Of a stretch of DNA of 48,446 nucleotides, positions 1 through 26,062 are shown in pieces; within the stretch, counting starts at the first letter, position 1, and each line of letters starts with the position of its first letter. Under the pieces are notes generated by a model. It did not search any database. It saw only the letters and a program-made list of their open reading frames with translations, and was not told the origin of the DNA. A program made the translations under genes and the position numbers. The stretch is from sequence record SRR22947725_2636. One strand, written 5' to 3'.

Positions 1-288
1 AATTGTATTATTAATTTTATGTGCACCAGTATGATTTAAGTCCTCACGCTTCAGATAAATTTTTGCACCGCCAATCTTTTTAGTCAGGTTTTCTGCGAAG
101 TAGAGTGGCGTTTTACGCCCAACATAGTGTTTAAGATCATCCTCAAACTCTTTAAGGAAGTCTGGATCATCTTTAAATTTCTCATAGGCCTCTTTTAACT
201 CTGTGACTGCTGTCATCAGAGTTTCGGCAACAAAGATTCCACCGTATTGATCAAAATGACCTTTTTCGTCAGGAAGGTTATAGCTCAT
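1..288 (-). CDS. trpB: Tryptophan synthase beta chain, N-terminal 96 aa (runs off window edge)
   Basis: Manual translation from ATG at 288: [25 protein letters not shown]...[14 protein letters not shown]...[20 protein letters not shown], containing the PLP-lysine motif [12 protein letters not shown] overlap with the trpF stop. Not in the ORF track. Confidence 0.97.
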
Positions 289-896
289 GAATTGGTATGT
301 CTGATAAAAGCTTCTATTTTATCAATATCCTTAACTCCTGGTGCACTTTCCACGCCACTTGAAGCATCAACTGCATATGGATTTACTTGTTTAATTGCAT
401 CGGCTACATTGTCAACAGTTAAGCCACCAGCCAAAATAATTGGCAATGATATTTTGACACACGCCAATGACCAATCAAAAGACTCACCGGTTCCTCCATA
501 ACTTGAAGGGCTGAAAGAATCTAAAAGGAGTGCGCTAGCTGATGAAAAATTTTCAGCTATTTCTTTAACATTAGTGTCTGGTTTTACGCGTAAAGACTTG
601 ATAAATGGCATTTGATATTGAGCACAATCAAGAACACTTTCATCACCATGAAACTGAAGAGTATCAAGAGGTACCTCACAAAGAATCTCATCAATAAAGC
701 TGGGGTTAGCATTAACAAATAAACCCACTCTATTTATGAAAGGAGGAAGCGCTTCAATTATTTTTTGAGCAGAATGGATATCTACATTTCGTGGAGATTT
801 ATCATAAAAAACCAGGCCGATTGCATCAACGCCGGCTAAGGCAGCATCTCTGGCATTATTAGGCTCAGTAAATCCACAAATTTTTACCTTAGTCAT
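285..896 (-). CDS. trpF: Phosphoribosylanthranilate isomerase
   Basis: [38 protein letters not shown] motifs; directly upstream of trpB. Confidence 0.97.
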
Positions 897-978
897 TAGC
901 TAAATCAATTTCTTTAAAAGAATGATTTTCTCATAGCCTCGCTATGTAATGAATACAATTAAGGAATGAACTTAAAAT

Positions 979-3333
979 TTAACTAGAAGCTTTTTTTTTG
1001 GCAGGCGCTTTCTTTTTAGATTTTTTTACTTTAGCTTTTTTGGCTTTAATTTTTCCCTCTATAGCTTTTTTGCACTCCTCAAGGGATAAGTCTGCTGGCT
1101 CTTTGTCACCAAAAACTTTTTGAACAGTGACATTTTTTTGACCTTTGCCTCGCTTTTTACCATTCCAAATATATGGACCAAAACGACCATTCAAAACCTG
1201 AATTTCAGAGTCTTCAAATACCTTTATTATTCTTTCAGCATCGAATTTTTCTTTTGCAGCAATAAGCTCTAATGCAGTCTCTAAAGAAACCTCTTCTGGT
1301 GAGACCTCTTTCAAAGAGACATACTTTTTTCCATATTGAATATATGGACCAAAACGTCCATAATTAGCCTTAATTACTTCACCACCATCTGTCTCTCCAA
1401 CAGTTCGAGGCATTTTGAAAAGCTCTATTGCTTCATCAAGTGATATATTTTCAATGTCTTGCCCTGTTCTAAGTGAAGCAAAAGTTGGTTTTTCCTCATC
1501 ATCTTGAGTACCAATCTGAGCATAAGCACCATATCGACCGAATCGCACACTTACTGGCTTACCAGAAACTGGATCTTCTCCTAAGTCCCTCTTTCCATGG
1601 GTTTCATCTCGCGAAATATCCTTAGCAAGCTCTATTTGCTCATGAAAGGGTTCATAAAAATTTCGAATTACGCCTGCCCATGGCTTGGATTCTTCAGCAA
1701 TAAGGTCAAAGTCACTTTCAAGATTAGCTGTAAACTCATACCCAATAATATTTCTAAAGTTTTTAACCAAAAAATCAACTAAGAGGTAGGCTACATTTGT
1801 TGGGAATAACTTATTTTTTTCAGCCCCTGTGTTCTCAGTTTGCGTCAATTGTGAGATAACACCATCTGCAATTTCTATCATTTGATACTCTCGTTGAACA
1901 CCTTCTCTAGTATCTTTGACAACATAATTTCTATCTTGAACTGTTGTAATCATTGTTGCAAATGTTGACGGTCTTCCAATCCCCATTTGCTCAATCTCTT
2001 TAACTAATGAGGCTTCAGTGTATCTTGGTTTTGCTCTAGAGAATGACTCTCTAGAACTCATATCCATGAGAGTGAGCTCATCGCCCTTAGACACCTCAGG
2101 CAACAATTTATCTTCAGCAGCAATGTAATCATAAACCTCAAGAAATCCAGCAAAAGAGAGAATCTCACCATCTGCAATAAAGTTTTCACTTCTTTCCGAG
2201 ATACTAATATTGATTTTAGTTTTTTGTAACTGGGCATCACTCATTTGAGACGCCAATGTCCGTTTATAAATTAAAGAATACAATTTTGCTGACTGATCAT
2301 CTAATCCCAAAATAGTTGGCTTAGTTAGATCCGTTGGTCTGATTGCTTCATGCGCCTCTTGAGCACCAGTGGAACTTGTCTTATATCTTCTGGCCTGATG
2401 AAAATCCTTGCCATATTTAGAAATAATTTCATCTTGGGCCGCTGAAATTGCCACTTCAGATAAATTTAACGAGTCAGTTCTCATGTATGTGATTGCACCT
2501 TCACGATATAAGTTTTGCGCAATTGACATAGTCTGCTTGACAGAAAATCCAAGCTTTTGAGATGCCTCTTGTTGCAATGTAGAAGTTATAAATGGCGCTT
2601 TAGGTGACCTTTTAGAAGGCTTAGTGTCAATAGACTCAACAATTAACGTTGACTTCAAAAGAGCCTCTGCAAAAGAAAGCGCCTCTTCCCTGGAGTCAAA
2701 GTCTTTGCCTAGCTTTACCTCAAGGCTTTGACTAGTCTTGTTTACAAGGTTTGCTTTAACTTTATAAGTGCTAACAGGAGAGTGTGCAGAGATTTCACGT
2801 TCACGCTCAACCACCAATCTCACAACTGGAGACTGAACTCTGCCAGCAGAGCGTGCTCCAGAAATTTTACGCCATAGCACTGGTGAGATTTCAAAGCCAA
2901 CAAGTCTGTCAATAATGCGCCTGGCTTGCTGCGCATTAACAAGATCAGTATTTATTGTTCTTGGGTTGCTAATTGCATCGGTAATAGCACCCTTGGTTAT
3001 CTCATGAAAAACAATCCTTGGAGTATCCTCAGCTAAGGAAAGCGCTTGTTGCAAATGCCATGCAATGGCCTCTCCCTCTCTGTCCTCATCAGTTGCAAGA
3101 TAAATTTTCTCAGCAGTTTTAGCAGATTTTTTAAGATCAGCAACTACTTTTTTCTTATCCGCACTGATAGCGTAGGTTGGCTGGAAGTCATTCTCTATAT
3201 TGACACCCATATCTTTCTTTGGCATGTCTCGAATATGACCTATGCTTGACTTAACAACATAGTCTGCGCCTAAGAACTTTTCAATTGTTTTTGCTTTCGC
3301 CGGTGATTCGACAATAACAAGATTTTTTGACAT
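979..3333 (-). CDS. topA: DNA topoisomerase I (type IA) with zinc-free C-terminal repeats and Lys-rich tail
   Basis: LVIVESPAKAKTI, ATDEDREGEAIAWH, SAGRVQS, ITYMRTDS (catalytic Tyr), QEAHEAIRPT, GIGRPST; three GR(Y/F)G(A/P)Y repeats. Confidence 0.97.
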   Translation of the reverse strand: MSKNLVIVESPAKAKTIEKFLGADYVVKSSIGHIRDMPKKDMGVNIENDFQPTYAISADKKKVVADLKKSAKTAEKIYLATDEDREGEAIAWHLQQALSLAEDTPRIVFHEITKGAITDAISNPRTINTDLVNAQQARRIIDRLVGFEISPVLWRKISGARSAGRVQSPVVRLVVEREREISAHSPVSTYKVKANLVNKTSQSLEVKLGKDFDSREEALSFAEALLKSTLIVESIDTKPSKRSPKAPFITSTLQQEASQKLGFSVKQTMSIAQNLYREGAITYMRTDSLNLSEVAISAAQDEIISKYGKDFHQARRYKTSSTGAQEAHEAIRPTDLTKPTILGLDDQSAKLYSLIYKRTLASQMSDAQLQKTKINISISERSENFIADGEILSFAGFLEVYDYIAAEDKLLPEVSKGDELTLMDMSSRESFSRAKPRYTEASLVKEIEQMGIGRPSTFATMITTVQDRNYVVKDTREGVQREYQMIEIADGVISQLTQTENTGAEKNKLFPTNVAYLLVDFLVKNFRNIIGYEFTANLESDFDLIAEESKPWAGVIRNFYEPFHEQIELAKDISRDETHGKRDLGEDPVSGKPVSVRFGRYGAYAQIGTQDDEEKPTFASLRTGQDIENISLDEAIELFKMPRTVGETDGGEVIKANYGRFGPYIQYGKKYVSLKEVSPEEVSLETALELIAAKEKFDAERIIKVFEDSEIQVLNGRFGPYIWNGKKRGKGQKNVTVQKVFGDKEPADLSLEECKKAIEGKIKAKKAKVKKSKKKAPAKKKASS

Positions 3334-18240: not shown

Positions 18241-19701
18241 ATGAAAAAACTACTCGCATTTAAACTCTCAATATTAATACTAACTTCACTTCCATTGTAT
18301 GCTAATGAAGCATTGATTGGAAGCTGGAAAAATAATGAAGGCCTCAGAATGGACTTTTTGGGTGGCTTTAAAGCAAATGTTGGGCCTGTAATTTATTGGG
18401 AGGATGATGAAGTTAGTAAGATTCACACCTGGGTAGTTAATACAAATAGCAACGAGTTGAAAATCCATTATGAATCAGGTGCGTATGAACTATCAAATGA
18501 TGGAATGCAATTATTTTGGAATACCTCTGCATGGAAAGAAAAAGAAGACTTAACATGGGAAAAAGTTGATGATGTTTTTCAGACAAACTCAATAAATTTA
18601 AAAATAGATCCGGATGCTTTTGTTAATGAACTGACCAAATCTAGTTGGAGTTCAAATTTTAATAATATTGACCTTAAAGAGTTTACGAAAACATTTTCAT
18701 CTGCTTCAGGAATTTTGTCAGAGTTTGATAACGAAGCCAATCTTGATAATCTCCAGTCATGGGGTGTTGCTTCTGGTGTTCTCATGATAGGAACCTCCGA
18801 TCTTTATGTTGAAGCAATTATTTCTGATATGTATCTAATTGCTGTTGATGAAAATGATAGTTTTCTCGTGTTATATAAAGGTGATCTAAAAGAAAATGAA
18901 GAAAGAGTTACTCTTAAAGACTCTCGAGAGAAGTTTTTATCTGCTTTAACAACAGGTGCATGGAAGCAGGTTGGATATTATTCCGATTCAATATTCAGAT
19001 ATAGACCGATAGAGGGAGATTTAAAAGGTAGGGCGTTTCTTGAGCGTGACTCAAAACTCATCTCTACCTCGGTGTGGGAGTTTTCTCCTGCTACGGGGGC
19101 TTTTAAAGAGGGTTACAATGAATATATTTCGGGAATAAACATCGGTGACCTTATTGTTTTTGTTGATGAAGATGGAGAACAAAATGCCTTTTATAGAGAT
19201 AGTTCAGTTGAATTAAAAGAATTTTCCACTTCTGATGTAAAAAATATATCTATAAGTGAGCGTTCAACTGATGACACTAAAAATGCTCTAACCAAACAAA
19301 TGTCTATAGGAAGTGGAAGTGACTTTACATTGTTTGAATTTAACTCAGATAACAGAACAGGCTACTTCCACAAATGGACCTCTCATCCTTTTCAGATAAC
19401 AGGACAAACGCTTTCAATTGATGATCACTATCCATCGAGCTTTGAGCAGTTATACATTGTTGAAGATTATTTAGTTTTTGATGAAACCTATAACTCCAAA
19501 GTTGATGTCCGAGAAAGCCGAATGAGGCCAAAAACAAATAATGAAGCTAAAGATGATGTTATTAAAGCAGTTGCTGCTATTGAGGAAGGTCAAAACTTTA
19601 TAAAAATCAGGGTTGACCTAAAAGATGGCTCAAGTGAGACAATTCCAATTCCTGTCTCATCATTACAAGATTTAAAATCGATCAGCGTTATTACGGAATA
19701 A
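18241..19701 (+). CDS. Secreted hypothetical protein with internal repeats of about 105 aa
   Basis: 486-aa ORF; signal peptide MKKLLAF...LYA; repeated L-x(3-4)-W modules; acidic, no Cys. Confidence 0.85.
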   Translation: MKKLLAFKLSILILTSLPLYANEALIGSWKNNEGLRMDFLGGFKANVGPVIYWEDDEVSKIHTWVVNTNSNELKIHYESGAYELSNDGMQLFWNTSAWKEKEDLTWEKVDDVFQTNSINLKIDPDAFVNELTKSSWSSNFNNIDLKEFTKTFSSASGILSEFDNEANLDNLQSWGVASGVLMIGTSDLYVEAIISDMYLIAVDENDSFLVLYKGDLKENEERVTLKDSREKFLSALTTGAWKQVGYYSDSIFRYRPIEGDLKGRAFLERDSKLISTSVWEFSPATGAFKEGYNEYISGINIGDLIVFVDEDGEQNAFYRDSSVELKEFSTSDVKNISISERSTDDTKNALTKQMSIGSGSDFTLFEFNSDNRTGYFHKWTSHPFQITGQTLSIDDHYPSSFEQLYIVEDYLVFDETYNSKVDVRESRMRPKTNNEAKDDVIKAVAAIEEGQNFIKIRVDLKDGSSETIPIPVSSLQDLKSISVITE

Positions 19702-19774
19702 GCTCTGTATTTACTCTACTATTATTAGGAAAAAAACAATAAAAGTAAAAAGTGGGCAAAAAAAATTACAAATA

Positions 19775-20119
19775 TTGAGTGGGTATCTTAATGATTCTCC
19801 TCTCATGAAAGAATTATTGAGCTTATCAATTCAAAATGGGCATAACGATTGGACTTACGAACAGTGGTCTGAAGTTTGTCACGAAAATGGCTGGATAGAA
19901 ATCTCTAATCAGTCTGATATTTGGGTTGAAAGTATCCAAGACGCAACTAAACGAGACTTAATAATTGCCTACAATAAACTTAATCAAGACCTTAAATGGA
20001 ATACTAAAAAGAAAGAGAAAATGCTCTTTAGAAAAGGAGATTTAGTGATCTCATATGAAAAAGACTTAGCCAATTGGTGGGATTATCAAGCTTTACTAAA
20101 TAAAAATAAATCGATATAA
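19775..20119 (+). CDS. Trp-rich hypothetical protein (alternative ATG start 19805)
   Basis: 114-codon ORF in very AT-rich DNA; no family recognised. Confidence 0.55.
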   Translation: MSGYLNDSPLMKELLSLSIQNGHNDWTYEQWSEVCHENGWIEISNQSDIWVESIQDATKRDLIIAYNKLNQDLKWNTKKKEKMLFRKGDLVISYEKDLANWWDYQALLNKNKSI

Positions 20120-20309
20120 GTCATATTAATCATCAATTTTCTATTAAATATGTCATTTTTATTAAAAAATTAATTAAAAATGTATGATTTTTGAATAAAA
20201 GACCATTTTTTAAGGACTTTTTTGCAATAAAACCTCTATATTTCATTAAAAAAGACTAAAAATATACATTTATTGGTTTTTATAAGCGAAATAATCGATA
20301 TATGATAAC

Positions 20310-20338
20310 TTGACATGCAAGGTTTAATACACTATATT
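20310..20338 (+). promoter_or_regulatory. Sigma70 promoter of the tgn-like operon
   Basis: TTGACA (20310-20315)-17 bp-TATATT (20333-20338). Confidence 0.75.
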
Positions 20339-20344
20339 TCTTCA

Positions 20345-20426
20345 TACTCAAGTCGGCAGGCAGTGAGACAAAAAGGTGTGTGCCATGAAGGTTAGTATAC
20401 TACTACCAGAGAAAGTGACCTTATGA
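20345..20426 (+). promoter_or_regulatory. Structured 5' leader: predicted H-type pseudoknot plus 13-codon uORF (20385-20426)
   Basis: CTCA/TGAG and GGCAGGCA/TGTGTGCC crossing stems; AAGGTG SD-like sequence; uORF MKVSILLPEKVTL* ends in an ATGA overlap with the next gene. Confidence 0.4.
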
Positions 20427-21250
20427 GCGACTTGATAAAAGACAATCTTAACAAATCAACCAATCTTTTGGATAAAGATAGCACTGCCTATAGGGTTTTT
20501 GGTGAGAGTGGCCCATACTTAATTTTTGTTCATGGAGTTGGTATGTCTGGTGAAATTTGGACACCCCAAGTGAAACATTTTTTTTCTAACTATAGAGTTA
20601 TAACATATGACTTTCTTGGGCATGGCCAGAGTCCAATCCCAAAAAAACCCCCTTCCATTGAGGACTATGTTGAACAACTCAACTCACTTGTAGAAACAAT
20701 TAATATCTCTAATTTCAGTCTAGTTGGCCACTCCATGGGTGCTCTAATAAGTGTTGCTTTTGGCCTAAAGTATCCAGAAAAAATTACCGCATTAATATCT
20801 CTAAATATGGTTTATAAAAGAAGTATAAATGCTCAAATTGATGTAATCGAACGTGCAAATTTAATTTTAAAACAAGGTGAAATAAATAATATAGGCCAAA
20901 CCTTGGATAGATGGTTTAAAAATAAAACAGAATATCATCAAATTCAGCAAATAAAGAAAGTGCATCAACTTTTAACTGATGTAAATCCGCAGGGTTATGG
21001 ATACGCATATAAATTATTTGCAGAGTCTGATCGTCACTTTGAAAATAAACTTTCAGAACTTAGCGTACCTGTTTTATACTTAACTGGGAGTGACGATCCA
21101 AACTCAACCCCAGATATGTCAAGCGAAATGGCTCATGAATCTCCTCAAGGCAGTTTTATCAGTATTGCAAATGAAGCACATATGATGGCGTATATTGCCC
21201 CAGAAAAGATAAATCCAGTAATTGAAAAATTTATAAAAACGAATGAATAA
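20423..21250 (+). CDS. tgnD: Alpha/beta hydrolase, TgnD-like (trigonelline pathway hydrolase)
   Basis: FVHGVG, YDFLGHG, GHSMG nucleophile, TGSDD.NSTP, EAHMM; assignment rests on operon context. Confidence 0.72.
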   Translation: MSDLIKDNLNKSTNLLDKDSTAYRVFGESGPYLIFVHGVGMSGEIWTPQVKHFFSNYRVITYDFLGHGQSPIPKKPPSIEDYVEQLNSLVETINISNFSLVGHSMGALISVAFGLKYPEKITALISLNMVYKRSINAQIDVIERANLILKQGEINNIGQTLDRWFKNKTEYHQIQQIKKVHQLLTDVNPQGYGYAYKLFAESDRHFENKLSELSVPVLYLTGSDDPNSTPDMSSEMAHESPQGSFISIANEAHMMAYIAPEKINPVIEKFIKTNE

Positions 21251-22184
21251 AAAAGACAAAACTAGAGAATTAAGACAAGCATTAGGATCATTTCCTACAG
21301 GAGTAACTGTTGTAACTTGTCTCGACTCAAACAATAACCCGCTGGGATTTACTGCCAACTCATTTACATCTGTCTCTCTAGAACCGCAACTAATCTCAAT
21401 ATGTATTGATAAAGACTCCTTTAATATTGAATCCTTTTCAATAGTTGGGCACTTTGCAGTGAGCGTTCTTTCTGAAGATCAACAGGCTATCTCAACAACA
21501 TTTGCAACTCCAAATGAAGATCGTTTTTTGGATATTGAGTGGGATTCAAAAAATACTGGAAGTCCAATTATTAAAGGCGCTGTAGCCTGGTTTGATTGTG
21601 ATACTGAACAGGTTATTAGTGCTGGAGATCATCTGATTCTAATTGGGAAGATTATTGCCTTTGACAGCACCCCTAAGACACCACTTATGTATCTTAGGGG
21701 TAATTATGTTAATCTTGGTCTCGAGCAAAAAATGAGACTAGCAATGGAGAATGAAAATACAATAATAGTTGTGGGTGCATTAATTGAATGGCAAAAAAAA
21801 GTGCTCCTGCTAAAAGACAAAACAAGCGGCAAACTTTATTTTCCTTCTGCCTCCAGGCTTGGGCATATTGATGATGAACAAAGTCTTCTTGGAGTTCTAA
21901 ACAAGCTAAGTATTTCAATTAGCGAACACTATCTTTTTTCAGTCTTTGAAAAGCCTCTGGATAAAACAAGCCTCATTTATTATCGTGCTCAGGCTAAAGA
22001 AGGATCAATTGAATCTCAAAATAACTTTTATGACTTTGATGCAATTCCGTTTGACAAACTTAATGATGAAGCGAGTAGAATAATGCTCAAGCGTTATATT
22101 AAAGAGAGAGATTTGAATGCTTTTGGGATTTTTGTTGGAAAAGAAAGTGAAGGTAAAATTGAGGCAATCAGTACAACTAATTAA
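21243..22184 (+). CDS. tgnA: Flavin reductase component of a two-component monooxygenase, TgnA-like, with extra C-terminal domain
   Basis: LR.ALGSFPTGVTVVT, GFTANSFTSVSL.P, AGDH.ILIG; adjacent to an LLM oxygenase. Confidence 0.78.
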   Translation: MNKKDKTRELRQALGSFPTGVTVVTCLDSNNNPLGFTANSFTSVSLEPQLISICIDKDSFNIESFSIVGHFAVSVLSEDQQAISTTFATPNEDRFLDIEWDSKNTGSPIIKGAVAWFDCDTEQVISAGDHLILIGKIIAFDSTPKTPLMYLRGNYVNLGLEQKMRLAMENENTIIVVGALIEWQKKVLLLKDKTSGKLYFPSASRLGHIDDEQSLLGVLNKLSISISEHYLFSVFEKPLDKTSLIYYRAQAKEGSIESQNNFYDFDAIPFDKLNDEASRIMLKRYIKERDLNAFGIFVGKESEGKIEAISTTN

Positions 22185-22204
22185 AATTTATAGGAACTTT
22201 TAAA

Positions 22205-23242
22205 ATGGATTTTTCTTTATTTGCTCATATGGAAAGAATAGACGAAGGTCAGTCTCAAAAAAGACTCTATGAAGAGTTTGTTGAACTTTGTCAAATAGCC
22301 GATAGGTCTGGCTTTAAAACAATATGGAATGGAGAGCATCACGGCATGAACTTTACGATTGCTCCAAACCCATTTGTGAATCTTGTTGATTTGGCTAACA
22401 AGACTGAAAATGTTAGACTCGGCACCGGTACTATTATTGCACCTTTTTGGCACCCTATAAAACTTGCTGAAGAGGCTGCAATGACGGATATTATTTCTGG
22501 GGGAAGACTTGAACTAGGGATTGCAAGAGGGGCATATTCTTTTGAGTACGATCGACTAGCTGATGGAATTGATCCGTTTTCTGCTGGAAACGCTTTAAGA
22601 GAAATTGTTCCAGCAATCAAAGCACTGTGGAAAGGCGACTATACTGGTGAAGGTGAGCACTGGTCATTTCCAAAAACTACTAGCTCGCCCAAACCTCAAC
22701 AAACTCCTAATCCACCAATTTGGATTGCGGCCAGGGATCAAAACTCACATGATTTTGCCTTAAAAGAAGGGTGTAATGTCCAAGTTACACCTCTTTGGTT
22801 TGGTGATGAAGAAGTCATTTCGCTAATGGAAAAATTTAACATAGCATGTGAAACACATAAAGAAATTAAGAGACCAAAAATAATGGTTTTACGCCATACA
22901 TTTGTTGCAGAAACTGAAGAAGAAATTTCTCAAGGCGCTAAAGATATTTCTCGCTTTTATTGTTATTTTGGTGCTTGGTTTAAAAATGAAAGGCCTGTTG
23001 AGCAAGGACTAATTGAGAGGCTTACAGATGAAGAGATGTCGAAACTTGAAATGTATTCTCCAGAAAATATGCGCAAAAATAGCATTATAGGCACACCGGA
23101 AGAGGTGATTAATCGGATCAAGCTATGTGAAGAACTTGGTTATGATGAATACAGTTATTGGATTGACAGCAGCATGGATTTTGAAACAAAAAAGAAATCA
23201 CTTCAGCTTTTTATTGACAAAGTCATGCCTGCATTTAACTAG
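22205..23242 (+). CDS. tgnB: Luciferase-like (LLM) flavin-dependent monooxygenase, TgnB-like trigonelline oxygenase
   Basis: FSLF.HMER, GEHH.MNFTIAPNPF, PFWHPIKLA, ARGAYSFEY, YFGAWFKNER, EYS.WID motifs, recalled as matching Acinetobacter TgnB. Confidence 0.8.
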   Translation: MDFSLFAHMERIDEGQSQKRLYEEFVELCQIADRSGFKTIWNGEHHGMNFTIAPNPFVNLVDLANKTENVRLGTGTIIAPFWHPIKLAEEAAMTDIISGGRLELGIARGAYSFEYDRLADGIDPFSAGNALREIVPAIKALWKGDYTGEGEHWSFPKTTSSPKPQQTPNPPIWIAARDQNSHDFALKEGCNVQVTPLWFGDEEVISLMEKFNIACETHKEIKRPKIMVLRHTFVAETEEEISQGAKDISRFYCYFGAWFKNERPVEQGLIERLTDEEMSKLEMYSPENMRKNSIIGTPEEVINRIKLCEELGYDEYSYWIDSSMDFETKKKSLQLFIDKVMPAFN

Positions 23243-23251
23243 ATAGGACAA

Positions 23252-24724
23252 ATGATGGAGCATTTTAAACACTACATTAATGGCAAATTCAGTGATGGAT
23301 CAGAACAATTTGAAACGTTGAATCCTGCAAATGGCAAACCTTGGGCTTCTTTTCCTGCTGCATCAGAACAAGAGTCAAACTCTGCAATTGAATCTGCACA
23401 CTCAGCCTTGTATGATGGCCCATGGTCAAAACTAAATGCAACACAAAGAGGTAAGTTAATTCACAAGCTTGGGGATTTAATTGCTGAGCATGCGTCAGAG
23501 CTTGGTGATCTTGAAACTCAAGATAGTGGCAAGCTAGCAGTTGAGACTCGAGCTCAATCTAGTTATGTAGCAGATTATTACTATTACTATGCTGGCTTAG
23601 CAGATAAAATCCAAGGCGAGGTTCTCCCAATTGACAAACCTGACATGCAGGTATTTACAACTCGTGAACCTATTGGTGTTGTTGTTGCTATTGTTCCATG
23701 GAATGCTCAACTTTTTCTAGCAGCTACTAAGATAGCGCCTGCCTTAGCTGCGGGCAATACTGTTGTAGTAAAAGCTTCTGAACAAGCACCTGCAGCACTA
23801 TTTAAATTTGCTGAGTTGGTTGACAAAAGCGGATTTCCTCCAGGAGTAATTAATATAATCACTGGTTTTCCTGAGCCTTGTGGCAGGGTTTTAACCACCC
23901 ATCCAAAAGTAGCAAGAATTGCTTTTACTGGAGGCACGGAAGTAGCTCGGCATATAATAAGAAATAGTGCAGAGAATTTTGCCCATGTTAGCCTTGAGCT
24001 AGGGGGAAAGTCACCGATGATAATATTCAAAGACTGTAATATTGAAGGTGCTGTTAATGGAATTATTGCTGGCAATTTTGGAGCGTCTGGACAAAGTTGT
24101 GTCGCTGGATCGCGTGTATTCATTCATAGGTCGATTCACTCAAAAATAATTGGATTAGTTAAGGAGCGTGCAAAGAGCATCGTTGTAGGTGATCCATTAG
24201 ACAGCAAAACTCAGGTTGGTCCACTTGCGACAGAACACCAAGTTGAAAGAGCTTCTAAAGTTGTTCAGAATTCTATTATTCAGGGAGCCAGTTTAGTTTT
24301 TGGTGGAAAAAAGCCGAGTCAACATAAAGAAGGTTGGTATTTTGAACCTACACTTCTAGATTGCCCTAATCAAGAATTTGATTGTGTCAAGACAGAGCTT
24401 TTTGCACCTGTTATTAGTGTCATTGCATTTGATACCGAAGAAGAAGCTATAGCTATGGCCAATGACTCAGACTATGGACTGGGATCTGGAGTTTTTACTG
24501 AAAATTTAGCGAGAGCTCATCGTGTCAGTTCAAAAATACACTCAGGAATTGTTTGGATAAATACGTATCGTGCAATCTCACCTATATCCCCTTTTGGTGG
24601 CTTTAAACAAAGCGGTGGCAGTCGCGAAGCTGGAATTGACGCGATTCATGAATATACTCGGACTAAAACAACATGGATAAATACCTCTTCAGAACCCATG
24701 AGCAACCCCTTTATAATGAGGTAG
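23252..24724 (+). CDS. tgnC: Aldehyde dehydrogenase family protein, TgnC-like
   Basis: IVPWN, FTGG, LELGGKSP (Glu), GQSCVAG (Cys), EL.F.PV-like ELFAPV; C-terminal MSNPFIMR; operon context. Confidence 0.75.
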   Translation: MMEHFKHYINGKFSDGSEQFETLNPANGKPWASFPAASEQESNSAIESAHSALYDGPWSKLNATQRGKLIHKLGDLIAEHASELGDLETQDSGKLAVETRAQSSYVADYYYYYAGLADKIQGEVLPIDKPDMQVFTTREPIGVVVAIVPWNAQLFLAATKIAPALAAGNTVVVKASEQAPAALFKFAELVDKSGFPPGVINIITGFPEPCGRVLTTHPKVARIAFTGGTEVARHIIRNSAENFAHVSLELGGKSPMIIFKDCNIEGAVNGIIAGNFGASGQSCVAGSRVFIHRSIHSKIIGLVKERAKSIVVGDPLDSKTQVGPLATEHQVERASKVVQNSIIQGASLVFGGKKPSQHKEGWYFEPTLLDCPNQEFDCVKTELFAPVISVIAFDTEEEAIAMANDSDYGLGSGVFTENLARAHRVSSKIHSGIVWINTYRAISPISPFGGFKQSGGSREAGIDAIHEYTRTKTTWINTSSEPMSNPFIMR

Positions 24725-24759
24725 TGAAATTAATAATATTGATGCAAGTGGAGTAAAAA

Positions 24760-25140
24760 ATGGATAAAAAATTATTTGAATTAGGCTTATCTAAGAGGAA
24801 GGCAACACTGGGGAAAGAATATGTTCAAAAAAACTTAGATGCTGCTGATGACTTTAATGAGGACTTTCAGAAACAAATGACTGAATGGTGCTGGGGATTT
24901 GGCTGGGGAGATGAAACTATTGACAAAAAAACAAGGTCAATGATGAACCTTACTATGCTTGCTGCGCTTGGAAAAATGGATGAGTGGGAAATACATCTTA
25001 AAGGTGCCCTAACGAATGGTGTAAGTAAAAACGAGATCAAATCAATTCTGCATGTGATTGCAATATACTGCGGCGTTCCTCAAGGTGTAGAGTGTTTTAA
25101 AGTTGCAAGAGGAGTTTTAGAGAAGGCAGGTGAAATCTGA
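24760..25140 (+). CDS. Carboxymuconolactone decarboxylase (CMD/AhpD) family accessory protein
   Basis: GL..RK..LG.EYV, TEWCWG..W, KTRSMMNL.ML.AL, H.KGAL.NGV, AIYCGVP. Confidence 0.85.
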   Translation: MDKKLFELGLSKRKATLGKEYVQKNLDAADDFNEDFQKQMTEWCWGFGWGDETIDKKTRSMMNLTMLAALGKMDEWEIHLKGALTNGVSKNEIKSILHVIAIYCGVPQGVECFKVARGVLEKAGEI

Positions 25141-25156: not shown

Positions 25157-26062
25157 TTAACCTTGCTGAGAAGTTTTTTTTGAGACAGTCATTGCAACAG
25201 CAAATGCTATCAATATAACTCCTATTATTGACACAAAGTTCATAGTTTCTCCAAACAAATACCAAGCTTGGATAGCAACAAGAGCAGGCACTAGATAAAA
25301 GTAACTCCCAACTTTTGCAGAAGCATCTTGCTTGATCATTGTCATTAATAGAAGCACTGCACCAATTGAAAGCCCAAAAATTTGCCAACCTAAGGTAACA
25401 ATAAATGTACTAGTCCAATTTATTTCACCTGTCTCAAAATAAAATGATATAAAAACACACAGTATAAAAGCACCAAGGTATTGAATCAACGTACCACTAA
25501 TTAAATCCATTTCATTACAAAAGCGCTTTTGATAAATAGTACCTACTGAGATGCTAAATAGAGATCCAAATACAGCTAAAACTCCCCAAAAAGAAAAGTT
25601 AGTGAAAAAACCATCAAAACCAAAATCAAGTTTTTCAAATAAAATTAAATATAGTCCAATAATTCCTATTAATAAACCTAGCCATTGTCTAGTTGTGACC
25701 TTTTCATGGAGAATTATACCTGCTATAAATGCCATTCCAAGTGGCTGAAGACCGATAATCATAGCAGTAAGCCCTACAGATACTTCCCACTTAATCGCCT
25801 GAAAAACACCGCCAAGATAAATCCCATGAATTAATAAACCAGTTACCATTAAATGTATAAAAGCCAAGCCAGATTTTGGCCAAATGCTTTTATTGACCTG
25901 TGTGAATATAATCAGCACTATTAATGTTAGTCCATTACGATAAGATAACAAAGTGAAAGGCTCTGCGAATTGAAGGCCATATTTAGCAGCTACGAAACCT
26001 GTGCTCCAAATCAAAACAAATAGCCATGGAATTATTTTAGAGTTCATTCTAAGATCTCTCAT
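25157..26062 (-). CDS. EamA/DMT family transporter (alternative start 26047)
   Basis: FVLIWSTGF..AK.GL..AEPFT, GIYLGGVF.A, GLQP, GTIYQKRF, FYLVP; about 10 TM segments. Confidence 0.92.
   Translation of the reverse strand: MRDLRMNSKIIPWLFVLIWSTGFVAAKYGLQFAEPFTLLSYRNGLTLIVLIIFTQVNKSIWPKSGLAFIHLMVTGLLIHGIYLGGVFQAIKWEVSVGLTAMIIGLQPLGMAFIAGIILHEKVTTRQWLGLLIGIIGLYLILFEKLDFGFDGFFTNFSFWGVLAVFGSLFSISVGTIYQKRFCNEMDLISGTLIQYLGAFILCVFISFYFETGEINWTSTFIVTLGWQIFGLSIGAVLLLMTMIKQDASAKVGSYFYLVPALVAIQAWYLFGETMNFVSIIGVILIAFAVAMTVSKKTSQQG

Follow-up and report, generated by a model that had tools for sequence, protein, structure and literature searches.

A conserved 38-nt leader RNA as putative sensor of a translational ON riboswitch upstream of tgn-like and MttB-family genes

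Several riboswitch classes are built as compact H-type pseudoknots, and most of these classes hide the Shine-Dalgarno (SD) sequence when the ligand is bound and thereby act as OFF switches; the SAM/SAH riboswitches occur in Rhodobacterales. The trigonelline cluster tgnA-F of Acinetobacter baylyi ADP1, which Perchat et al. reportedly described in 2018, is said to be equipped with a protein regulator. TgnA and TgnB perform the ring opening of trigonelline (PMC8269262). Here we analyze a 38-nt element at positions 20347 to 20384 on the plus strand of a 48,446-nt stretch of DNA from sequence record SRR22947725_2636 (hereafter the window, to which all coordinates refer unless a locus is named), situated in the leader of a tgn-like operon. 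An initial annotation of this DNA had proposed a riboswitch at this place, in which an H-type pseudoknot gates a small upstream reading frame (uORF) coupled to the operon. The element is conserved, it covaries, and it is complementary to the start region of the gene behind it. We conclude that a widely conserved pseudoknotted leader RNA is real, and we consider it probable that the 38 nt are the putative sensor of a translational ON riboswitch belonging to a class that has not been described.

The putative aptamer consists of CUCAAGUCGGCAGGCAGUGAG, an A-rich linker of 7 nt (20368 to 20374) and GGUGUGUGCC; in other copies the linker has 6-9 nt, and in one copy it holds a hairpin insertion of approximately 95 nt. 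The orthologues of the alpha/beta hydrolase encoded by the first gene of the operon were drawn from 30 genomes of the genus of the window (proteins 50-98% identical), and 29 of the 30 leaders carried CTCAAGTCGGCAGGCAGTGAG, followed by 6-9 A-rich bases and GGTGTGTGCC, with the surrounding sequence varying freely. The thirtieth leader comprised just 172 nt of upstream sequence. With a covariance model, 37 of the 43 genomes searched in the genus gave a single strong match; among the 15 genomes of high quality, 14 did so. The motif is single-copy in the window, exactly one exact copy was present in each of five genomes of the genus that were checked, and a pattern with a fixed 7-nt linker found it as a single copy in four of five other genomes, the fifth having an 8-nt linker that the pattern does not match. 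Eroded copies were observed in two sister species of the genus (loci L011, 1418-1461, and L012, 1400-1443), where the regulation may have been lost or altered.

When one genome per species of bacteria and archaea was scanned with a pattern for the first 19 bases, at least 120 loci were obtained. Among the matches listed, the whole 38-nt element was present in 55 of 120, coming from Rhodobacteraceae (including Shimia, Ruegeria and Phaeobacter), Kiloniellales, Rhodospirillales, a metagenome-assembled genome (MAG) of Hyphomicrobiales, Granulosicoccus and other gammaproteobacterial MAGs, and a same-strand open reading frame (ORF) followed the motif in 53 of the 55, the downstream sequence being too short in the other two. 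The remaining 65 of the matches listed lack the 3' half and were set aside as unrelated; many of these are one recurrent match in a protein-coding gene across many phyla, and the rest are scattered. The covariance model located the element in 9 of 151 Rhodobacteraceae genomes, and its weak matches in 40 other genomes of this family (at most 21.5 bits) were taken as noise, the two that were inspected resembling the 3' half only. Of the 38 positions, 33 show no variation or reach at least 90% conservation when 72 unique sequences are compared. As is generally found for riboswitches, the element lies in sense orientation in the 5' leaders of distant taxa; it is always situated directly 3' of a promoter. 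Judging from these sequence comparisons, it is conservation and not folding energy that makes the element real.

For the pairing scheme, two models were compared on the alignment of the 72 unique sequences (A1). The initial annotation had folded the region by eye into a stem S1 (CTCA at 20347-20350 with TGAG at 20364-20367) and an 8-bp stem S2 (GGCAGGCA at 20355-20362 with TGTGTGCC at 20377-20384, containing one G-G mismatch and one G-U pair), and all four strands are indeed found there. In our revised model S1 is retained as P1, with the strands CUCA and UGAG and an additional flanking pair; GUC (20352-20354), lying inside the former loop L1, pairs with GGC (20359-20361) to form P2 (G6-C15, U7.G14 and C8-G13 in element numbering); and the loop GGCA (20355-20358) pairs with UGCC (20381-20384) as the pseudoknot, which is the upper half of the former S2. 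The revised model contains 5 pairs that changed on both sides, compared with 1.1 ± 0.4 in shuffled alignments, where 0 of 500 shuffles reached 5, and with 0-1 in slid controls. These changes are located in P1, P2 and the pseudoknot. The earlier model with S1 and the 8-bp S2 contains 2 such pairs, both of which are common to the revised model.

The P1 pair C3:G19 is replaced by G:C at L161 and L162, and the flanking pair (-1:+22, n=72) is G-C in 38 sequences, G-U in 2, A-U in 1, C-G in 1 and unpaired in 30. Within P2, G6:C15 has become A:U at L011 and, through C15U alone, G.U at L012, and C8:G13 has become G:C at L163, L164, L216 and L217. The pseudoknot pair G10:C37 is A:U at L173, one of two matches from a metagenome scan in which G10 had to be replaced by another base while the remaining 3' half was unconstrained; the second match (L172), in which the 3' half is absent, was treated as chance. 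A search for variants with the 38-nt pattern, allowing up to 3 mismatches in 401 Rhodobacteraceae genomes, gave 12 matches, two of them with CUGA...UCAG replacing CUCA...UGAG and two with AGUGGGCCCGCAG replacing AGUCGGCAGGCAG.

The H-type pseudoknot and the covariation asked of it therefore hold up in part: S1 and the GGCA/UGCC half of S2 are supported, with one compensatory change each, while the lower half of S2 shows no covariation in the 72 sequences and is disrupted by uncompensated changes at L043, L011 and L012, and also in genome G469. L1, previously drawn as a plain loop, is at least partly a helix strand, covarying as P2 with the 5' strand of S2. P2 and the lower half of S2 are mutually exclusive and could belong to different states. 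The invariant GGUGUG (20375-20380) has no supported partner, and its changes are rare and uncompensated (L043, G469); it could form the lower half of the former S2 in one state, or provide tertiary or ligand contacts.

Since the element always lies directly after the -10 box, its conserved bases might in principle be a DNA operator at +1 to +40 where a repressor blocks the promoter, and symmetric changes in an inverted repeat can also preserve the site of a dimer. We find this highly unlikely in view of three interleaved sets of covarying pairs that include a pseudoknot, a U7.G14 pair that is G-U in 72 of 72 sequences, a linker varying between 6 and 9 nt, the lack of a linked regulator, and bases after the element that co-vary with the start codon region (see below). 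The spacing is most instructive in the Rhodobacteraceae genome G159, where the 5' hairpin and an intact AAACGGUGUGUGCCAUU lie approximately 113 nt apart with stable hairpins between them (z = -3.55); a repressor operator would not tolerate such a distance and a pseudoknot does, which argues for RNA rather than DNA. At L217 (~1385-1544, minus strand), the leader of one genome contains a decayed 3' half immediately behind the hairpin, then ~95 nt that fold into stable hairpins and, by the start region, an intact 3' half, an arrangement that looks like a partial duplication.

The coordinated P2 variant C8G/A12C/G13C, with AGUGGGCCCGCAG replacing AGUCGGCAGGCAG, is found upstream of MttB genes in four Rhodobacteraceae genomes (L163, 498-541; L164, 5004-5047, minus strand; L216 and L217, both 1501-1544, minus strand). 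In a tree of 33 MttB proteins with two of the four variant loci, the two enzymes are not sisters, and so the tree does not reveal a specificity split. The variant may have arisen twice or been transferred, and a changed specificity of the GUGGGCCCGCAG variant pocket is possible.

The complementarity to the start region was analyzed in the window and in the alphaproteobacterial leaders. In the minimum free energy (MFE) fold of the window, two helices flank and cover the hydrolase start codon. The anti-start strand CAUGAAGGUUA (20384-20394), which contains the uORF AUG, pairs with UGACCUUAUG (20416-20425), which includes the hydrolase start codon at 20423-20425, and the anti-P1 strand CGACUUGA (20428-20435, hydrolase codons 2-5) is the complement of 20348-20355, that is, of the 5' strands of P1 and P2. 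In 22 of 29 leaders of the genus the anti-P1 complement ranks in the top 5% relative to 200 shuffled 9-mers, and it is retained whether the codon is one for Arg or Ser (AGA, AGC), and despite a wobble change, which points to selection on the RNA.

In alphaproteobacterial leaders the pairing is a different one: in 21 of the 37 leaders analyzed, CC-AU, where the element ends, is paired to the start-codon AU-GG, and in one leader CCAC is paired to GUGG. The next three bases form on average 1.86 pairs with positions -1 to -3, compared with 1.52 ± 0.12 for permuted partners (7 of 2000 permutations equalled this; 36-37 leaders). The duplex energy with the own start region is -11.3 kcal/mol, compared with -9.4 kcal/mol for permuted partners, and was equalled in 0 of 5000 permutations, a test that is inflated by related sequences (36-37 leaders). 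The start codon pairs with the 3' end of the element in the MFE folds of 21 of 39 leaders, and when the element is locked and unavailable, the unpaired probability of the ribosome-binding region (positions -12 to +3) rises from 0.29 to 0.40, going up in 17 leaders and down in none. Computationally, the platform pairing thus excludes the folded sensor, as generally expected of a riboswitch.

Taken as a mechanism, the RNA would start at approximately 20345 and a hairpin would form with P1 (CUCA/UGAG), an internal loop, P2 (GUC/GGC) and the loop GGCA, which would then pair with UGCC beyond the A-rich linker and the invariant GGUGUG to give a compact pseudoknot. With the element unfolded in the window, 20348-20355 would pair with 20428-20435 just past the start codon and 20384-20394 with 20416-20425 across it, burying the AUG; in the copies from Alphaproteobacteria the partner of NNN-AU-GG at the start codon would instead be the 3' strand of the pseudoknot with the bases following it (CC-AU-NNN). 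Once a metabolite is bound, the pseudoknot would be locked, the start region would become accessible and the catabolic genes would be turned on. On both platforms the folded element goes together with a free start codon, which makes an ON switch, and this logic suits catabolic genes. Both the ON direction and the direct binding of a ligand are what we infer.

The folding models thus offer a better explanation of the gating, namely competition between the folded element and the start-covering helices, than the uORF does. The latter is present in the window as previously annotated: 13 codons at 20385-20426 encode MKVSILLPEKVTL, GGUG lies 6 nt upstream of the AUG, and the TGA overlaps the hydrolase ATG at 20423 (ATGA), so that translation of the uORF, gated by the pseudoknot, could be coupled to that of the hydrolase. 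An ATG directly after GCC is also found in some alphaproteobacterial leaders, and altogether in 12 of the 72 unique leaders. It is absent from the other 60, it is limited within the genus to the species cluster of the window, and the peptide shows no conservation, neither the start nor the frame being kept as in a leader peptide. The AUG itself sits in the anti-start strand, and pairing with the main start codon accounts for the CAU-G bases. Gating of the uORF appears very unlikely to us, and as far as the leaders tell, the uORF is not part of the conserved device.

Transcript data were available from ten RNA-labelled runs that hold at least half of the sampled words of the window, and the contigs of four runs from four studies were examined. 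In two metatranscriptome runs from different studies the contigs start at 20363 or 20364 with adapter sequence directly before and run past the hydrolase gene, and no contig of these two runs covers 20298-20362. The contig of one run starts at 20239, upstream of the predicted promoter, and that of another run spans the whole region. These contigs are what would be expected if the operon and, at a minimum, the 3' half of the element were transcribed together. A transcription start downstream of 20385 had been named as a finding that would speak against the riboswitch; the contigs from 20363/20364, joined to the hydrolase gene, argue against such a start, and they fix no start themselves; DNA may be present in the libraries. 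The 20363-20364 contig starts fall inside the element, between G17 and U18. These ends could reflect a processing site, a stop of the reverse transcription, or a library artefact near the 5' end. As a weak hint, they would agree with the element being a processing or self-cleavage site that is cut between G17 and U18, a reading we hold to be extremely unlikely: contigs cannot show RNA ends, the contig of another run crosses the site, and no ribozyme family in Rfam matches. A library preparation that loses the first 10-20 nt of a transcript would mimic such ends.

The genes behind the element differ between taxa. By regular expression 85 unique instances were classified, of which 32 are hydrolase-first, 34 MttB, 4 LLM-first and 15 unsorted; those of the unsorted instances that were inspected are MttB genes, as judged by Pfam or by their ORFs. 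Outside the genus the element is not found upstream of the hydrolase of the tgn-like operon. An MttB-family (PF06253) methyltransferase gene encoding approximately 485-540 aa follows it in most Alphaproteobacteria and in Granulosicoccus, and in one MAG each of Rhodospirillales, Kiloniellales and Gammaproteobacteria a different LLM oxygenase gene follows. In the Rhodospirillales MAG the order after the element is LLM oxygenase, hydrolase and aldehyde dehydrogenase (ALDH), the hydrolase and the ALDH being 33% and 56% identical to those of the window. The element is therefore associated with different genes of one metabolic theme (tgn-like operon, MttB, and LLM/hydrolase/ALDH operon), as is typical of riboswitches. 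No regulator gene adjoins the element in the window and four other loci, except for a MarR gene on the opposite strand at L175. At L170 of Phaeobacter marinintestinus (20-1663, minus strand) the MttB frame behind the element lacks its N-terminal part, which sits in another frame; this break is a frameshift or a sequencing error.

The gene context bears on another explanation, in which an RNA-binding protein acts in trans on the structured leader; the metabolite would be sensed by this protein and not by the RNA, and the protein would tip the competition between the folded element and the helices that occlude the start. What is presented above on structure and platform is equally compatible with such a protein. 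We consider it unlikely, since no candidate gene accompanies the element, whose neighbours are wholly different from locus to locus, and the MttB gene of Ruegeria is solitary and surrounded by housekeeping genes; the protein would moreover have to be present in both streamlined 1.7-Mb Gammaproteobacteria and Alphaproteobacteria.

Turning to the surroundings of the element in the window, the near-consensus promoter of the initial annotation was readily recognized as a sigma-70-type promoter on the plus strand at 20310-20338 (TTGACA at 20310-20315, a 17-nt spacer and TATATT at 20333-20338), an 11 out of 12 match and the top promoter-like site within 19700-21300. Its distance to the motif is fixed in the orthologous leaders of the genus, and the alphaproteobacterial leaders that were read carry a TTGAC-like and CTAnnnT-like pair at an equal distance upstream of the motif. 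The operon under control of the element (20423-25140, plus strand) encodes the alpha/beta hydrolase, a flavin reductase, a luciferase-like monooxygenase (LLM), an aldehyde dehydrogenase and a CMD-family protein, as assigned by Pfam and NCBIfam. It thus contains what characterizes a tgn operon, a two-component flavin oxygenase (flavin reductase and LLM) together with a hydrolase and an aldehyde dehydrogenase, and homologues of the LLM protein with 66-67% identity are named [quoted passage not shown] in the JGI annotation. The label "trigonelline-like operon" given earlier is accordingly borne out as a reasonable one, short of proof, on the strength of family assignments. The remark that the cluster is without a regulator gene is likewise supported, no regulator domain being found by Pfam in any ORF scanned between 14.2 and 28.1 kb.

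Directly upstream of the cluster lies an ORF of 486 aa (18241-19701), and for neither this nor the ORF at 19775-20119 was a Pfam or NCBIfam family found. In one metatranscriptome run, the latter (114 aa; observed over 19833-20120) lay on a contig of depth 275, compared with 13.5 for the contig of the operon; the contigs of three runs diverge from the window upstream of 19833 with an identical loose end, and one contig ends at 20120 with adapter sequence behind. On the other side, an EamA-family transporter gene (25157-26062, minus strand) adjoins the operon on the opposite strand, and an EamA-family gene also adjoins the element-controlled operon in an unrelated gammaproteobacterial MAG (L176, 9980-10882). 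The transporter may be an uptake or export partner of the pathway.

A number of points weigh against the riboswitch as we propose it. The independent compensatory events are few, one in the P1 core, two or three in P2 and one in the pseudoknot, and L173, the sole pseudoknot covariant, is of uncertain function, being without a long ORF in the 480 nt downstream. In 6 of 72 sequences the A12:U35 pair is disrupted, and no compensatory change restores it. Most of the sequences were gathered with patterns fixing the 5' half, which hides variation there, and kinship among them inflates the shuffle tests. Furthermore, with all 4 nt of the loop paired and a helix of 3 bp adjoining it, the geometry leaves little steric room, so that P2 and the pseudoknot may belong to different states. 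Folding of single sequences is not better than chance, with z-scores of -1.96 for 20345-20440 (10 of 200 shuffles fold as well), -1.15 for the hairpin and -1.12 for the 40-mer, and folding energies were not used as support. The anti-P1 complement is found in just 2 of 47 leaders outside the genus and is absent from the other 45, and locking the element makes the start region only modestly more accessible. The eroded copy L012 is devoid of P1 and half of the pseudoknot with promoter and operon kept. Near-total invariance, stems included, is equally typical of RNAs recognized by proteins. Finally, the naming after trigonelline goes back to automatic JGI names of homologues and to the reported tgn genes of A. 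baylyi.

With regard to the ligand, we regard as likeliest a compound that all three gene sets use as substrate; this would be a methylated nitrogen compound, and trigonelline (N-methylnicotinate) heads the list. The tgn-type oxygenase points to trigonelline, and by inference only, the MttB-type enzyme could demethylate it to nicotinate. That trigonelline itself is the ligand is nevertheless rather doubtful. In its widest form, our proposal is that the element is the first-seen member of a new class sensing trigonelline or a related N-methylated phytoplankton osmolyte, which is distributed among heterotrophs that are abundant in the sea (the SUP05-related Thioglobus group and Rhodobacteraceae) and turns on two alternative routes, Tgn-type ring opening and demethylation by an orphan MttB-family enzyme; this we put forward tentatively, granting it somewhat less than an even chance.

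If the proposal is true, the element would assign a substrate to an uncharacterized MttB clade, giving a testable substrate hypothesis for an orphan clade that is widespread in aerobic marine bacteria. Quaternary amines serve as major currencies in the exchange between marine phytoplankton and bacteria, and we know of no RNA sensor for any of them; for trigonelline, none was found in Rfam 15 or in the literature searched. It would also show how a leader RNA takes the place of a protein regulator in bacteria with streamlined genomes, and the presence of two expression platforms on one sensor would make a clean case for the evolution of riboswitch logic. The 38-nt aptamer would, if validated, be a compact part for biosensors.

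The earlier remark that the sequence could not be matched to the known compact pseudoknot riboswitches agrees with our searches. Rfam 15, searched by cmscan with E-values up to 10, gave no match at the element in window positions 19000-22000 or at five other loci of the motif, the families without a match including preQ1-I/II/III, SAM-II, SAM-V, SAM/SAH, guanidine-III, NAD+-II, fluoride, pistol, twister and hatchet. The motif was not found described in literature on riboswitches with trigonelline, MttB or trimethylamine methyltransferase, a search with subscription journals and supplements outside its scope; two 13-letter core strings did not occur in the paper texts searched, and the motif was not found in the accessible portions of two surveys from the Breaker laboratory.

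Among described systems, the element resembles preQ1-I/II, SAM-II, SAM-V, SAM/SAH, guanidine-III and NAD+-II in its size of approximately 40 nt, in a hairpin loop that pairs with a 3' tail, and in an A-rich connector. As in the compact pseudoknot riboswitches, the 3' strand adjoins the ribosome-binding and start region, so that folding and initiation compete. It differs from these classes in having no sequence or covariance-model similarity to them, in that folding appears to free the start region (ON) where they are mostly OFF switches, and in its genes, which are catabolic (MttB-family and tgn-like oxygenase operons) instead of serving cofactor synthesis or transport. A riboswitch candidate named the proX motif, found with betaine transporter genes downstream in Spiribacter and in metagenomes from saltwater (PMC8632094), is a similar orphan of marine or saline bacteria with a link to quaternary-amine metabolism and an occludable ribosome-binding site; it is set apart, by description and not by sequence comparison, by its proX transporter genes and multi-stem architecture. 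With the tgn cluster of A. baylyi the window shares the flavin reductase, the LLM oxygenase (whose homologues are TgnB-type by JGI name), the hydrolase, the aldehyde dehydrogenase and a small CMD-type protein. Unlike that cluster, it has the hydrolase gene first and no regulator or transporter gene inside, and it appears as if the control of the tgn-like genes has here passed to the leader RNA.

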